Assembly (NCBI GenBank): GCA_036252695.1 | Contig: GCA_036252695.1_4122.1 | DNA length: 64,000 nucleotides | From: a phage | Strand: one strand, 5' to 3' | Shown: positions 49,165 to 53,455 of the stretch, piece by piece | Position numbering within the stretch: the first letter of the stretch is position 1 | How the letters are laid out: every line of letters starts with the position of its first letter | Made by a program: the position numbers and the translations under genes | The notes under the pieces: generated by a model | Told to the model about the DNA's origin: nothing | What the model saw: only the letters and a program-made list of their open reading frames with translations | The model's database searches: none

Positions 49165-49469
49165 AAAAATTATTAGTTCCAATGATTTCTTTTTTAATTA
49201 TAAGTGGGTGTGCCGAGCAAGTAAAACTACAATCCCCCGCACCAATTAAACAAGAAATTCTGTTAGAAAGATGTGATGATGATACACCTCTACCACAAAA
49301 AATTATGATTGACAAAAATGGTTTTAAAGGTTATGATGGTGCAGAAATTCTTAAAGTACTTACTCGTTGGGATGCAGTATACAATGAATGTGCTTTAAAA
49401 CATGACGCATTGATTAAAACTATTCGTGATTTACAAGGTAAAGATATTAAAATCAATATCAAGGAATAA
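49161..49469 (+). CDS. candidate o-spanin (outer-membrane lipoprotein)
   Basis: Signal sequence with lipobox IISGC; ATGA overlap with the upstream membrane protein. Confidence 0.45.
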   Translation: MKKLLVPMISFLIISGCAEQVKLQSPAPIKQEILLERCDDDTPLPQKIMIDKNGFKGYDGAEILKVLTRWDAVYNECALKHDALIKTIRDLQGKDIKINIKE

Positions 49470-49470
49470 A

Positions 49471-50082
49471 ATGAACAAATATCATGTTTACTATACGACT
49501 AAATTATCACTTCTTGAAGAATTAAATCAACGAAGTACTAAGATGAAACGCTACACTTTAAATGGAATTACTTTTAGGTATTTCCCACAAAAAGTTCTTA
49601 CATTTATTAAGAATCCAAAATGCGTGGCATGTGGGATTGAAGCCACTGAAGTACGCATTGAACGTTCATTTTGTTCTGATCCAGTATATGGTAAACCACA
49701 TTTAAATATATATGCTGTATGTGGTCTTTATGAAGTGTTGATGACAGTTGATCATAATCATCTGGCATCTAAGGGTGGACCTGATTTAGAGTCAAACTTT
49801 AATACTATGTGCTCCAGATGTAATCAACTACGTTCGAATAAAACTGAAACAGTTGATGAGTTTCTTGAGAAAGTTAAAGGTCGTAATCTTCTCCAAGAAC
49901 ATATGAATAATTTCTTTAATGTACAAAAAAAGAAAAATAACATTGACAAGTCGAAACTACTAGAAGAACGTAGGTTACGTCAAGAATTATGGGAAACTGA
50001 TCATCTATGGCATGTTCGAGAGTTTGGTCGTCATATGAAAGCTTTGAAAAAAGAACAAAAGAAATTGAATAAACATGATTGA
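49471..50082 (+). CDS. HNH endonuclease
   Basis: CVACG ... VDHNHLASKGG ... N ... CSRCN motif typical of HNH; ATG at 49471 after AAGGA. Confidence 0.6.
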   Translation: MNKYHVYYTTKLSLLEELNQRSTKMKRYTLNGITFRYFPQKVLTFIKNPKCVACGIEATEVRIERSFCSDPVYGKPHLNIYAVCGLYEVLMTVDHNHLASKGGPDLESNFNTMCSRCNQLRSNKTETVDEFLEKVKGRNLLQEHMNNFFNVQKKKNNIDKSKLLEERRLRQELWETDHLWHVREFGRHMKALKKEQKKLNKHD

Positions 50083-50095
50083 TATGATATTATAG

Positions 50096-50123
50096 GGACT
50101 TGAGTATTCAAGTCCTTTTTTTT
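50096..50123 (+). terminator. rho-independent terminator
   Basis: Perfect ggacttga-gtat-tcaagtcc hairpin followed by eight T. Confidence 0.6.
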
Positions 50124-50134
50124 GGAGAAAATAT

Positions 50135-50407
50135 ATGAAAACTAAATTATTTCCACAACAAATAATGATTGAACTGTGCGAACATCAGTCTGGTGAAGTT
50201 GTTACAATCAGTGGTGATACGTATTCCATCATTTTAAATGAACAACAATTTGATCATACAAATCATACGAATGAACTGTATAATCTTATGTTTATGGACG
50301 ATAAGAGTGAAAAATACTATCATTGTACATATGAACGATGTATAGATACAACACCATTTTGTAATGAAATGGTTGGTGTTAAATGTTATGAATGTGAAGT
50401 GTTATGA
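50135..50407 (+). CDS. Cys-rich hypothetical protein (tandem duplicate 1)
   Basis: 90 aa; MELCEH..VVTISG...YYHCTYER...PFC.EM.GVKCYE shared with the next ORF. Confidence 0.55.
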   Translation: MKTKLFPQQIMIELCEHQSGEVVTISGDTYSIILNEQQFDHTNHTNELYNLMFMDDKSEKYYHCTYERCIDTTPFCNEMVGVKCYECEVL

Positions 50408-50427: not shown

Positions 50428-50784
50428 ATGAAAACAAAAATCTTTCTACCACAAACCATGATGGAACTGTGTGAACATGATGCAGGAGATGTTGTCACTA
50501 TTAGTGGTTCCTGGAATGAGAGTACTGAAGACTTTATGCCAGATGAGGTATATTCTGTTGTTTTAAATGAACAGTACAATACAAGCCGTTGGAATGAACA
50601 GTACAATCTAGTTTTTCTTGACAATAACAATGAAAAGTACTATCATTGTACGTATGAACGAGGTCTGACAGAACGTAACTACACAACTCCTTTCTGTGAT
50701 GAAATGGATGGTGTAAAGTGCTATGAAGTTTCTGTTCGTCAGGTTCCAGTTGTTACTTACAAAACCGAGTGGGATTATCTGTAA
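50428..50784 (+). CDS. Cys-rich hypothetical protein (tandem duplicate 2)
   Basis: 118 aa paralog of the previous ORF. Confidence 0.55.
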   Translation: MKTKIFLPQTMMELCEHDAGDVVTISGSWNESTEDFMPDEVYSVVLNEQYNTSRWNEQYNLVFLDNNNEKYYHCTYERGLTERNYTTPFCDEMDGVKCYEVSVRQVPVVTYKTEWDYL

Positions 50785-51182
50785 TGCTTAAAGATTTAGA
50801 TTTTTCAAATTTAGAGATCATCAGTGCAGTGAAGAATATTACTGATATGGATGATGAAAAAGGTGTAATGGTAACTATCACTTTCGTAAAGGAAGAGGAT
50901 AGCTATAAGCATCTTACTGGAATTGAAGAACTAATTCATAAAACCAATCTTGAGAATGATGGTAAACTCATCAAGCTTCAGGCTTCATATACGCAAAAAA
51001 CGTCAAATTTTATAGACCTAAATAATGTAGTCAAGGTGGTATACAATCATCCTGATCACACATATAGGAACACGACAAGAAATGAAAATGTTGCTAACGA
51101 TTCGAATATTATCGAAGATGTTGAATTCATAAACACAATTTTTGATCGTTGTTCTAAGGATTTAAAAAAAGTATACATGTAA
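50769..51182 (+). CDS. hypothetical protein
   Basis: 137-aa ORF. Confidence 0.5.
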   Translation: MGLSVMLKDLDFSNLEIISAVKNITDMDDEKGVMVTITFVKEEDSYKHLTGIEELIHKTNLENDGKLIKLQASYTQKTSNFIDLNNVVKVVYNHPDHTYRNTTRNENVANDSNIIEDVEFINTIFDRCSKDLKKVYM

Positions 51183-51183
51183 T

Positions 51184-51211
51184 GGGACATTATATGTTCC
51201 AATGATATAAT
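51184..51211 (+). promoter_or_regulatory. sigma70-like early promoter
   Basis: gggaca, 16-nt spacer, TG-a-tataat, pointing into an ORF-free region. Confidence 0.55.
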
Positions 51212-51484
51212 GTATATAGAAAATGACAACGGACATTGAAAAATGGACACTGAGAACCTACTTCTCTTGAAAATGTAAAGGATAGATGAGCTTTACCGTT
51301 GTAGCGAACAGCAGAAGAAACCTGTTAGAGTACTGGCATTTAAACAAACACGATGTAAGACCACGAATCACGGCGACACGGCTGTATAAAGAACTCCGAT
51401 AAGCATACAGAGAGTTCCTAGATAGATGTATAAGGTTCGCACCTTACCAGATTTGCTAAGGGAGTTTAAGAATAGCGGACGCAA

Positions 51485-51517
51485 TTTTACAAGAAAGTTG
51501 CGTCCAAAATTTGAGAA
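51485..51517 (+). repeat. direct repeat copy 1
   Basis: ttttacaagaaagttgcgtccaaaatttgagaa; core cgtccaaaatttgagaa identical to copy 2. Confidence 0.6.
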
Positions 51518-51634
51518 CAGGTACTTACTTTGATCGAATAGAGTTAGTACTGAGTGCTGTTGATGAAAAGACCAGCGACCGTTGCATATGACTGCGATAG
51601 AGAGAAACCGAGCAACCCGCTTTCGCTCTCTAAA

Positions 51635-51670
51635 TTTTGGTACAAGAAAGATCCGTCCAAAATTTGAGAA
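51635..51670 (+). repeat. direct repeat copy 2
   Basis: ttttggtacaagaaagatccgtccaaaatttgagaa. Confidence 0.6.
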
Positions 51671-51707
51671 ATTCGCAATTCGATAATATCCGATGCCATC
51701 ATCGTCA

Positions 51708-51735
51708 AGAGAGACTTAATTGTCTCTTTTTTATT
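51708..51735 (+). terminator. rho-independent terminator
   Basis: agagac-ttaatt-gtctct hairpin followed by six T. Confidence 0.55.
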
Positions 51736-51872
51736 ACCTTCATTCCCCTGCGGGGGGATGTAATAGTCCTCAACAAATCCCGTCAAGTTTTTAAAGTACA
51801 TTATCATTTTCAGAAGGAACTAGTTTACGAAGTAAACGCAGTGACTTCTTGAGTTACGAGAGAACGAAGTGA

Positions 51873-52301
51873 ATGAGTAACACAACGAAAATATCCGATA
51901 AATCTGAATTAACACAAATGTTATTCAAAGAATATTTTGAGTTCCAGATAAAAGACGAACATCAATTACCACAGCAATATTTGAAAAGAATTAAAGATCC
52001 GTCAGTAATTACTAAAGAAACTAATTTTTATAATAGTATTTTAGATTTCGTTAAATCAGTTCATACAACAAGACCTATTGTAGTTTTGTTTTTTGATAAA
52101 TCTATTCCTTTAGTAGTTCCTGAAAATGTATTTTTTATCTCAGAAACTGATTTAAATAATCAAAGTACTGTAAGTAGATTAAGAAATTGCTTACTTGTAG
52201 TATGTGATTCTTCTTTGTATAATAATAGAATACTATGGGATAGAAGTAAACGCAATGCAGTTTCGGAAATGAATCCTGAAATTACCTTTATTATTAACTA
52301 A
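51873..52301 (+). CDS. hypothetical protein
   Basis: 142-aa ORF. Confidence 0.5.
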   Translation: MSNTTKISDKSELTQMLFKEYFEFQIKDEHQLPQQYLKRIKDPSVITKETNFYNSILDFVKSVHTTRPIVVLFFDKSIPLVVPENVFFISETDLNNQSTVSRLRNCLLVVCDSSLYNNRILWDRSKRNAVSEMNPEITFIIN

Positions 52302-52333: not shown

Positions 52334-52774
52334 ATGGAAGATATTAATGATTTACGACACGTAATGGACTTTATCGGAAGTACTGAAGAAGATAATTCAT
52401 ATGATGAAGTACTATTAACTTTTATTGAAAATAGTTTGTTTTTAAGTTCTGCTGCACATAACTGGCACTTACAATGTCATTTTTATACAAAGCATTTACA
52501 ATTAGATGAACTATATAAAGAATTACCAGAATATGTAGACGCATTTGTTGAAGGTATCATGAATAATCGTGGTGCTTTGCAAGTTGGGACTGGTAATAGT
52601 TATCGTTTTACACCAATTGAAGATTGTGTACCAATTCTTGAAGAATATGTTGAGCAATGCAGAGCAATTCATGATATGCTTGAAGAATCGGGTGATTACG
52701 GCAGTGTAAACACATTAGAAGATATTATGAGTTTTGTTGAAGGAACACTTTACAAACTTAAAGTTTTACAATAA
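52334..52774 (+). CDS. hypothetical acidic protein
   Basis: 146-aa ORF after AAGGAGAG RBS, followed by a terminator. Confidence 0.55.
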   Translation: MEDINDLRHVMDFIGSTEEDNSYDEVLLTFIENSLFLSSAAHNWHLQCHFYTKHLQLDELYKELPEYVDAFVEGIMNNRGALQVGTGNSYRFTPIEDCVPILEEYVEQCRAIHDMLEESGDYGSVNTLEDIMSFVEGTLYKLKVLQ

Positions 52775-52782
52775 ACTATATG

Positions 52783-52811
52783 GAGAGTCGCTATGACTCT
52801 CCTTTTATTTT
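52783..52811 (+). terminator. rho-independent terminator
   Basis: Perfect ggagagtc-gctat-gactctcc hairpin followed by a T-run; overlaps the first codons of track ORF 52793. Confidence 0.55.
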
Positions 52812-52822
52812 GGAGAAATAAT

Positions 52823-53455
52823 ATGAAATCGCATGAATTAGCAAAATTACTACTGTCTCAACCGAATCTAGACATTTATCATTATGATGCAGAGAGTGAC
52901 TTGCATTATCAGAATTTTGATAATAGATTAATGGTTACACCATCTGGTATTTTCACCACAGTAAAAACCACATTAGATTATGAAAATGTACTTACTCCAT
53001 ACCATACACCACTCTTGGGTCACGTCCAAATTTTCTTTAAGGATGGTACTATTACTCCAAAATTGGAGGGTTCACATATCCAAACTGTTCTTAACTTAGA
53101 ATATGGGTTGGTATTTAACATTCCTTATGAAAAGCCAATTATTTTATTAGGTAAAAATCAATCAACACAATTCACTAATCAACATGCTGTTTGTTATACA
53201 TCCGATGATATTGATTTCATTTCAGTACTGACAGAATATGATCCTAATACTTGGCACGAAACATGGGAAACTATGTCATATGATGAAGCAATTGAATGTG
53301 GTAAAAATTTAGCCAAAATGTTATTTCCACCGAAAAAAGAACTTTCACAAGAACAAAATGAATCATTTTCTAAAGATTTTCCTGATTCTGAATTCAATGT
53401 TAAAGTATCAACTACCAAAATTGGTGAATTTCTAAATGAAAATCAAAAAGATTAA
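52823..53455 (+). CDS. hypothetical protein (duplicate pair, copy 1)
   Basis: ATG at 52823 after GGAGAAA, downstream of the terminator; N-terminus MKSHELAKLLLSQPNLDIYHY parallels ORF 53825. Confidence 0.55.
   Translation: MKSHELAKLLLSQPNLDIYHYDAESDLHYQNFDNRLMVTPSGIFTTVKTTLDYENVLTPYHTPLLGHVQIFFKDGTITPKLEGSHIQTVLNLEYGLVFNIPYEKPIILLGKNQSTQFTNQHAVCYTSDDIDFISVLTEYDPNTWHETWETMSYDEAIECGKNLAKMLFPPKKELSQEQNESFSKDFPDSEFNVKVSTTKIGEFLNENQKD

Follow-up and report, generated by a model that had tools for sequence, protein, structure and literature searches.

A candidate family of large, structured non-coding RNAs in Rak2-like jumbo phages

Positions 51183-51872 (plus strand) of a 64,000-nt phage sequence (contig GCA_036252695.1_4122.1; the whole stretch is called the window below) form, with a probability of about 0.95, the gene of a large non-coding RNA. 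The family has no match in Rfam 15, and full-text searches, including searches with its conserved sequence strings, found no description of it in the literature covered. The window comes from a Rak2-like jumbo phage of the genus Asteriusvirus. Comparative analysis showed a predicted RNA of ~0.5 kb with two domains and three pseudoknots, which represents a new family restricted to Rak2-like jumbo phages. It is highly likely that the locus is such a gene and, at the same time, that it acts at the RNA level. A previous sequence-only reading had described an interval between a promoter and a terminator without a convincing open reading frame (ORF), and had proposed a structured regulatory RNA, iteron-like origin elements or a degenerate intron. 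The first proposal is supported by deep conservation, extensive covariation, strand specificity and a conserved promoter of its own.

Conservation and covariation of the fold

Homologues were searched with a pattern of invariant bases in IMG/VR and in JGI/ENA metagenomes, and the hits were filtered with nhmmer. This resulted in 154 matches, 114 of them full length, and in 83 non-redundant sequences of 419-575 nt; the nhmmer match span places the RNA core of the window at 51253-51792. RNAalifold was applied to 50 sequences, mutual information and helix extension to all 83, and pairs were counted in an alignment designated A3. RNAalifold predicted 66 pairs, among which 44 showed compensatory changes, and the mutual-information analysis added three pseudoknots. 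The combined model contains 80 pairs in 16 helices, including the pseudoknots.

In A3, 97.9% of the cells in the model were paired, compared with 77.9% in shuffled alignments and at most 43% when the partners were slid. Changes on both sides were observed for 59 of the 80 pairs (749 cells). The covariation score was 0.548, compared with 0.19 for shuffled and at most 0.10 for slid partners, and none of 500 shuffles reached the observed values. The minimum free energy was also lower than that of shuffled versions (z = -3.66). Folding with conservation across relatives, a check suggested by the sequence-only reading, thus came out in favor of a structured RNA.

The direction of the RNA can be read from the same alignment. 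In helix P14, the only variation is C/U exchange opposite an invariant G-run. Because C or U opposite this run is tolerated in the plus-strand RNA and not in its complement, the plus strand is the functional RNA, and many G.U pairs elsewhere in the fold agree with this. Our comparative results indicate that selection maintains the plus-strand RNA fold, not a protein and not DNA repeats, and show that this predicted fold is under strong purifying selection. In addition, the GC content is ~40% in the RNA region vs ~30-34% in the flanks. In BLASTN, the gap region was 99.7% identical to Escherichia phage vB_Eco_slurp01 (slurp01 below) and 97-99% identical to 121Q, PBECO4, phAPEC6 and others.

Non-coding status

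No convincing ORF had been seen in the region before, and this agrees with our results. The longest ORFs have at most 87 amino acids, each plus-strand frame contains ~11 stop codons, and indels in the family shift the frame (801, 311 and 191 indels with lengths of remainder 1, 2 and 0 modulo 3, respectively). No 3-periodicity or other coding signal was found in the RNA region of the family alignment. A small ORF starting at GGGGGGAUG was rejected, as the window reads AUG-UAA there and indels shift the frame between copies.

Known RNA classes were also searched. ARAGORN found neither tRNA nor transfer-messenger RNA (tmRNA) in the 64-kb window, consistent with the earlier failure to see a cloverleaf. 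Rfam 15 gave no matches in the window at the gathering score; at E <=10, the region and its surroundings gave unrelated chance matches only, with nothing consistent in 14 relatives. The families without a match include ROOL, GOLLD, OLE, HEARO, group I/II introns, RNase P, tmRNA and 6S. A hammerhead-like arrangement, P1-CAGAUGA-P2-GAA, was excluded by its topology, by an A at U4 and by the lack of a model match.

Domains, helices and accessory modules

The features of the gene are given below, one per line, with coordinates in the window and strand. The 5' domain was delimited by mutual information and helix extension (83 sequences), pair counts and RNAalifold, and the 3' domain by pair counts and mutual information.

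51183-51872, +, RNA gene, from the promoter through the 3' extension, up to the next ORF
51183-51211, +, promoter: -35-like TGGGACA (51183-89), 16 nt, TG extension (51203-04), -10 box TATAAT (51206-11)
51218-51257, +, variable 5' leader, differing in length and sequence between copies
51258-51463, +, 5' domain
51258-68/51278-85, +, P1, with conserved loop GAAAAUGUA
between P1 and P2, +, junction AGAUGAG in the 5' domain
51290-92/51303-05, +, P2
51308-12/51381-85, +, P3
~51322-25/51370-73, +, P4
51376-78/51427-29, +, pseudoknot PK-A
51391-95/51413-17, +, P5
51431-34/51443-46, +, P6
within the 5' domain, +, conserved strand GCUAAGGGAG
51477-51517, +, accessory module A: hairpin GGACGCAA/UUGCGUCC, tail CCAAAAUUUGAGAA; holds repeat copy 1 (51488-51517)
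51520-51684, +, 3' domain, the most conserved part
51520-31/51540-51, +, P7
51533-39/51678-84, +, pseudoknot PK-B; 7/7 pairs covary
51555-58/51574-77, +, P8
51581-85/51612-16, +, pseudoknot PK-C, linking the P10 loop to an upstream strand
51593-97/51673-77, +, P9
51600-04/51620-24, +, P10, with loop AAACNGNNCAACCCG
51627-29/51667-69, +, P11, extended by module B (51630-51666); repeat copy 2 is 51641-51670
51692-95/51703-06, +, hairpin P12, GAUG/CGUC; GAUG becomes GACG opposite CGUC in relatives
51703-07, +, site 1, CGUCA, which includes the 3' arm of P12
51709-51728, U-run to 51732, +, terminator-like hairpin GAGAGAC/GUCUCUU, internal to the conserved element
51744-51792, +, 3' block (P14, GAUG, CUCAACAAAUC, site 2), almost invariant
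51744-48/51753-57, +, P14, UCCCC/GGGGG, a C-run/G-run hairpin
51781-85, +, site 2, CGUCA
51287-89/51783-85, +, possible long-range pairing UGA/UCA, which never varies and is beyond the reach of covariation
51793-51872, +, 3' extension, A/U-rich, with hairpin 51823-28/51832-37 and motif GAACGAAGUGA

The imperfect direct repeat of ~30 nt recorded earlier is present. Its copies (51488-51517 and 51641-51670) have 30 nt, are 93% identical (E = 5e-7) and lie 153 nt apart. They are instances of a module (~ACAAnAnAGnUnCGUCCAAAAUUUGAG) with two insertion points, one between the two domains and the other inside P11, and neither, one or both points are occupied across family members; columns 301-345 of A3 correspond to the presence or absence of module A. 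The direct repeat is therefore best described as an accessory RNA hairpin module that occurs zero to two times per family member. Because relatives carry 0, 1 or 2 modules at different insertion points, the repeat is not an iteron array. An iteron origin would have at least three regularly spaced direct repeats, whereas two copies and no further repeat family were found, and the iteron-like reading was abandoned. Repeat analysis likewise found no set of several identical repeats with unique spacers of similar length in the region, in line with the earlier statement that there is no CRISPR array.

Promoter and 5' leader

A promoter scan of the window matched 51184-51211 at 10/12 positions with a TG extension. 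The scan found 18 promoter-like matches vs 16 expected, so that a single match is not above chance. The family provides the stronger evidence: 74 of the 83 non-redundant members have the same type of promoter upstream, TG(A/G)(A/G)AC, 17 nt including a TGn extension, and TATAAT. The distance from the -10 box to P1 is 27-75 nt across copies. We infer a transcription start near 51218, and likewise the ends and the abundance of the RNA.

A "divergent RpoD-like" promoter class with the -35 element TGAAACG has been described in phages CBB and GAP32, and in CBB 11 of the 18 promoters of this class lie upstream of the DNA-synthesis gene region (PMC5259590). Judged by its -35 element (TGAAAC/TGGGAC) and extended -10 box, the predicted RNA promoter belongs to this class. 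The sequence-only reading had placed a strong early-type promoter at 51184-51211. Its presence is upheld by the conserved type, but the early-type label has to be revised, because the promoter is not a canonical early sigma-70 promoter and belongs to the CBB/GAP32 class.

No family-wide pairing of the 5' leader with the 3' trailer was found. In the window phage, an inverted repeat (51219-51248/51782-51811, 30 nt, 77% complementary) brackets the RNA core, with a duplex z of about -3. The terminal closing stem between the 5' and 3' ends at which this repeat hints was rejected as a family feature (mean z -0.34).

The terminator-like hairpin, the CGUCA sites and the 3' part

A terminator at 51708-51735 had been taken as the end of the locus. 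The hairpin and its U-run are real, but they do not end the conserved RNA, as conservation runs on to ~51792 and beyond. Because conserved RNA (P14, GAUG, CUCAACAAAUC(Y)CGUCA) follows, the hairpin at 51709-51732 is internal, and it is probably a leaky stop. It was read from the sequence and is absent from the terminator-scan listing. The stem has a different sequence in different copies (GAGAC, GTACAC, GATCC, GTACT and others) without loss of pairing; in about half of the copies, the hairpin is replaced by a mere U-rich linker (16-25 nt). In one subgroup, the hairpin is GUCAGA...UCUGAC followed by U8, with site 1 as its 5' arm.

Two hairpins reported earlier beyond this point were found again. 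The GC-rich one corresponds to P14, in which CCCC (51745-48) faces the G-run at 51752-57; it is conserved, and C-to-U is the sole change opposite the G-run. The perfect hairpin GTTTAC-GAA-GTAAAC (51823-51837) is present in the 3' extension, and phage A4 has a compensatory change there (GTTATC/GATAAC). Downstream of site 2, many copies have a TATAAT/TATAAA-like element, UGAAUUGAG, AACGAAGUGA and GAAAAUUCUUUGACAU. The terminator scan of the window found no terminator between the RNA and the ORF at 51873.

Sites 1 and 2 flank the terminator and P14, and they change in concert across lineages. AUCAUCGUCAG occurs with AUCUCGUCAG, and ACCAGCGUCAA with ACCUCGUCAA; in RaK2, ...GCUUCAAG occurs with ...CCUUCAAG (CUUCA at both sites), and in the Vibrio-type subfamily CGAAG occurs with CGAAG. 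No complementary partner for the CGUCA sites was found within the RNA. Recognition by one phage-encoded partner and an alternative pairing are the obvious options for this co-evolution.

Distribution of the family

BLASTN found the region in 72 phage records, all of them Rak2-like jumbo phages of ~350 kb. The carriers belong to Asteriusvirus, Mimasvirus, Eneladusvirus, Alcyoneusvirus and unclassified relatives, with ~70% identity between genera, and each genome has 2, 4 or 5 diverged, co-oriented copies. The homologues, at least 154, all lie on Rak2-like jumbo-phage genomes or on phage-like contigs. A search of 100,044 species genomes gave only three contigs with the element: two of phage size (185 kb and 299 kb) and a 2.8-kb fragment of a metagenome-assembled genome. 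They look like phage-like or mis-binned sequence, and a cellular origin of the RNA was rejected on this basis. When the 185-kb contig was compared with the complete jumbo-phage genomes in the collection, DNA similarity was found mainly in the RNA; only an unannotated fragment record of 1.8 kb gave a stronger match. In comparisons of distant phages, no DNA outside the RNA can be aligned any more.

In a divergent marine subfamily, the 3' domain and the 3' block are retained, but the 5' domain is of another kind, with hairpins that carry a UGAGAG loop. Its contigs (L143-L145, L150, L152, L188, L201 and L203, from ENA metagenomes) have 41-44% GC and Rak2-like head genes, and their portal protein shares 64% identity with its counterpart in Vibrio phage 2.275.O and 61% with the one in CBB. 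Another contig, L160, looks still more distant.

Genomic arrangement of the copies

All copies of a genome are on one strand. Their positions are as follows.

GAP32: 35.2, 98.8, 177.5, 261.5 and 340.7 kb
CBB: 32.4, 94.3, 174.5, 258.2 and 336.4 kb
BF: 30.5, 93.0, 174.5, 258.8 and 335.3 kb
Uncultured 366-kb genome: 41.0, 107.7, 187.9, 269.3 and 332.5 kb
121Q: 90.3, 192.8, 247.5 (the copy of the window) and 326.7 kb
RaK2-type: 191.4 and 279.7 kb (two only, 88 kb apart)

The spacing was noted in GAP32, CBB, BF, Yen9-04 and IMGVR_UViG_3300012988_000001 (loci L118-L122, L106-L109, L070-L074, L064-L067 and L032-L036). In genomes with five copies, the copies are 52-86 kb apart, and the gaps cluster at 78-88 kb, many of them near 80 kb. 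For five random points on a circle, the probability of such a minimum gap is 0.0004-0.005 per genome, a statistic that is close to a single observation because the genomes are syntenic relatives. In Yen9-04, the pattern scan left a 118-kb gap blank, and BLAST with an E-type copy revealed the predicted fifth copy at 334.8 kb. Asteriusvirus has four copies in the order E-A-D-C, without B; they are at least 55 kb apart, which is weakly non-random (P ~0.05). A universal spacing lattice of ~80-88 kb was rejected, as RaK2 has two copies and its predicted region at 85-130 kb is densely coding and gave no match.

The copies are of ancient origin and occupy syntenic places across genera; they have not been transposed recently. 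The flanks of paralogues gave three isolated weak-to-moderate protein matches and nothing systematic, and a relic of segmental or whole-genome tandem duplication was rejected accordingly. The ORFs downstream of the copies fall into at least 30 unrelated clusters, which also excludes a conserved neighbor gene forming an RNA-protein module. Downstream of the type-C copy (Munch, Hallingskeid, and GAP32 at 177 kb) lie a bidirectional terminator and a gene in convergent orientation, and in some copies a terminal hairpin of their own and a fresh promoter precede the next gene. The comparison suggests that the RNA gene is independent of its neighbors. The GC skew did not change across the element (0.095 in the 3 kb upstream vs 0.115 downstream, p = 0.24, n=20), which argues only against bidirectional firing and says nothing on unidirectional origins.

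Some further positions were recorded. In slurp01, a type-A paralogue lies at 135,439-135,899, ~0.9 kb upstream of window position 1, and the other two copies of this phage are found at ~266.9 kb and at ~29.5 kb, the latter immediately behind a gene for an rpoD-like sigma factor. One of the RaK2 copies likewise directly follows the sigma-factor gene of RaK2. In slurp01, the tRNA cluster (13-17 kb) lies apart from the RNA copies.

Possible modes of action

Host RNA polymerase would start near 51218 at the conserved promoter (TGGGACA, 16 nt, TG-extended TATAAT), and the folded transcript would have two domains, at least 16 helices and three pseudoknots. The expected products are a form of ~515 nt and read-through forms of at least 575 nt, because the hairpin at ~490 nt is variable and often absent and the 3' block beyond it is conserved. 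For the mode of action, we lean tentatively, by analogy with ROOL and GOLLD, towards a compact RNA that acts in trans, either alone or as the core of a ribonucleoprotein. This mode is favored by the complexity and invariance of the fold and by the variable copy number. Such an RNA would be made from the promoter class of the phage DNA-metabolism genes. Its functional surfaces might be the nearly invariant GAAAAYGUA, AGAUGAG, GCUAAGGGAG, GACCGU, AAACNGNNCAACCCG and G6 segments, and both CGUCA sites could be recognized by a single partner encoded by the phage, which might, for instance, process the RNA or bind there.

Several points weigh against an RNA acting in trans. Such an RNA does not need four to five ancient, non-homogenized paralogues at syntenic positions, and co-orientation and wide, regular spacing (52-86 kb) in the five-copy genomes are superfluous for it; syntenic, spaced and co-oriented paralogues point instead to a position-dependent role. 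The RNA may also double as a leader, because conservation passes the terminator-like hairpin and no terminator precedes the next ORF. No partner protein, target or catalytic motif was identified. No expression data were found for any Rak2-like phage, and the transcript, its ends and its abundance were deduced from comparison of genomes.

It is possible, if doubtful, that the RNAs are position-dependent elements that act at their own locus, as spaced, co-oriented origins or as another chromosome-level landmark. A phage enzyme might then create or hold a primer end at the two CGUCA sites. We know of no described counterpart for an origin determinant of this structured-RNA kind.

In its specific form, this alternative makes each copy a cis-acting replication origin of the T4 type, in which the fold would position or protect the primer. 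Folding governs primer formation in RNA II of ColE1. T4 has at least five origins; in oriF and oriG, a middle-mode promoter, in which the -35 element is not of the sigma-70 type but the -10 box is, is combined with an A+T-rich unwinding element, and their transcript forms an R-loop that primes synthesis in one direction (PMC3016281). The non-canonical -35 element with a sigma-70 -10 box in 74/83 copies has the form of a T4-type origin promoter, and the CBB promoter class lies mostly upstream of a region with many DNA-synthesis genes (PMC5259590). RaK2 also encodes T4-type RNase H, UvsW, gp41/61 and gp43. The arrangement adds to this: four to five co-oriented copies at 52-86 kb in GAP32, CBB, BF, Yen9-04 and uncultured genomes, with the low gap probabilities given above (in related genomes), a fifth Yen9-04 copy found where predicted, and ancient paralogues that hold their position while their flanking genes are not shared. 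The invariant G6 run is followed by A/U-rich sequence. An A/U-rich stretch also comes after site 2, although intergenic DNA is A/T-rich anyway. However, in the RNA the G-run pairs with a run of C and U, the RaK2-type genome has two copies 88 kb apart and none where the lattice predicted one, the spacing in Asteriusvirus is only weakly non-random, and the GC skew does not shift, which bears on bidirectional firing only. Origin transcripts such as those of T4 oriF/oriG and ColE1 RNA II are not known to need 16 covarying helices, three pseudoknots and loops that are invariant across genera, and this counts against an origin RNA. T4 origins also have no common sequence motif (PMC3016281), in contrast to this family. 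An origin role is thus doubtful.

An element acting in cis on transcription is unlikely. In this case, the nascent RNA would act on its own polymerase, as in HK022 put-like antitermination or in a leader/attenuator, and only modified complexes would pass the embedded terminator into the co-oriented genes. The order of promoter, structured RNA, terminator-like hairpin, conserved RNA and co-oriented genes, which is that of the window and of many other copies, would fit such a role, as would the lack of a terminator before the ORF at 51873 and the co-orientation of the copies with the bulk of the genes. In the subgroup with site 1 inside the terminator, P12 and the terminator would compete. In addition, 74 terminators have been predicted in CBB (PMC5259590). 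However, about half of the copies have no real terminator at this position, the type-C copy faces a convergent gene, in some copies a terminal hairpin and a new promoter separate the RNA from the gene that comes next, and the downstream genes are unrelated between copies. Known antiterminator RNAs have ~70-120 nt, compared with ~500 nt here, which also counts against this role. That the RNA acts in some other way than those considered here is possible and, in our judgment, doubtful as well.

A degenerate self-splicing intron, a mobile element or a mis-annotated protein gene is very improbable. The large structured core, the multiple dispersed copies, the HNH gene 1.1 kb upstream and the annotated small ORFs could suggest one of these. 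However, neither the window nor the 14 relatives matched an intron covariance model or another Rfam family at E <=10, the upstream ORF has its own stop codon without exon continuity, no conserved terminal duplex was found, the element has its own promoter, and its flanking genes are not the same from copy to copy; the copies are ancient and hold syntenic positions, and the stop codons and the lack of codon periodicity speak against a protein. The intron proposed earlier is thus not supported. A DNA-level origin with iterons, or a CRISPR-like or other repeat array, in which repeats and hairpins would be protein-binding DNA sites, is extremely improbable: the 30-nt repeat pair is real and T4 oriE has 12-nt iterons (PMC3016281), but only two copies occur, they form an optional module at two points within a covarying RNA, and the G.U variation is strand-specific.

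Neighboring genes and annotation

The ORFs adjoining the RNA gene are the following.

50769-51182, upstream ORF of 137 amino acids with its own stop codon, a "structural protein" in the 121Q annotation
51873-52301, downstream ORF of 142 amino acids, starting where the 3' extension of the RNA gene ends

In public records, the region is unannotated or overlaid with short "hypothetical proteins". The spurious-looking coding sequences (CDSs) on top of the RNA gene are on either strand, up to 4-6 per record (121Q gene 516, A4_511, SHEFM2K, SD-2_S15, WPEC3 and others); 121Q gene 516 is annotated on the minus strand. These CDSs are very probably spurious.

Further upstream, an ORF annotated as an HNH endonuclease in 121Q and A4 (49426-50082) is followed by a terminator-like hairpin at 50094-50117. 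It lies 1.1 kb upstream of the RNA gene, and the other RNA copies do not have such an ORF beside them. Two small ORFs in tandem, 50135-50407 (90 amino acids) and 50428-50784 (118 amino acids), are paralogous and have a common N-terminus, MKTK(L/I)F..Q..(I/M)ELCEH, and the motif EKYYHCTYER. On the other side, a perfect terminator-like palindrome, GGAGAGTCGCTATGACTCTCC, was predicted on both strands at 52782-52802. It extends over the start codon of ORF 52793-53455 and lies just past a Dps-like ORF (52334-52774, "starvation-inducible DNA-binding protein" in 121Q).

Significance and comparison with known systems

Large, elaborately folded RNAs of the kind of OLE, GOLLD, ROOL and raiA are seldom met in bacteria and phages, and for most of them the function has yet to be explained. 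A family of similar size and complexity in cultured lytic phages of E. coli, Salmonella, Klebsiella, Erwinia and Yersinia makes direct experiments feasible; an antisense-oligonucleotide method for phages is available (PMC12571901). The RNA is the most conserved DNA segment common to distant Rak2-like phages, and its gene is unannotated or under spurious CDSs in all 72 public genomes that carry it; it therefore calls for an annotation correction and offers a clade marker. The multi-copy, co-oriented and widely spaced layout is unusual for an RNA gene. If a function in cis were true, it would bear on the replication or organization of 350-kb phage genomes.

Among known systems, T4 oriF/oriG similarly have a non-coding transcript, a phage-specific -35 element with a sigma-70 -10 box, and several units of the same direction per genome. 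ColE1 RNA II is similar in its length of ~0.5 kb and its G-run near the 3' part. Compared with these, the fold is far more elaborate and is conserved across genera, one family is common to all copies whereas T4 origins share no motif, and RaK2 has two copies only. HK022 put and leader attenuators likewise combine a promoter-proximal structured RNA, an intrinsic terminator and co-oriented genes. However, the RNA described here is ~5-7 times larger, many copies lack the terminator, and at least one orthologous copy has no co-oriented gene downstream.

In phage PA5oct, ncRNA001 and ncRNA002 were defined by RNA-seq as ORF-free transcripts of 236-450 nt that are highly expressed throughout infection (PMC7318152). 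PA5oct is a relative of the Rak2-like clade, and its ORF-free transcripts, similar in this respect to the present family, may be analogues in function. Unlike the present family, they lie in the terminal repeat, and nhmmer found no homology between them (L129, 8263-8498 and 21951-22401) and the family. Beyond the PA5oct and CBB papers, the full-text literature search found no relevant work on non-coding RNAs or RNA-seq of Rak2-like phages.

ROOL and GOLLD are large pseudoknotted phage RNAs whose function is not known (bioRxiv 10.1101/2024.12.08.627333). Like them, the present RNA is encoded by a phage, has a length of several hundred nucleotides, contains many covarying helices as well as pseudoknots, and lacks an ORF. 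Conservation is universal in its 3' domain and weaker in its 5' domain, which is also the case for GOLLD (bioRxiv 10.1101/2024.12.08.627333). Assembly into homo-oligomeric cages is a further character of ROOL and GOLLD. Unlike them, it matches no Rfam model and shows no sequence or structure homology to them, its 64-kb window has no tRNA whereas ROOL and GOLLD often lie beside tRNA islands, its hosts are enterobacterial and Vibrio-type jumbo myoviruses, and it occurs in 2-5 diverged, dispersed, co-oriented copies, each with a conserved promoter. With more than 400 nt, no ORF, 80 pairs, three pseudoknots and covariation support, it has the characters of an "ornate" phage RNA. Because no known family matches it and the searched literature holds no description, we regard it as a new class of "ornate"-type RNA that stands beside ROOL and GOLLD.

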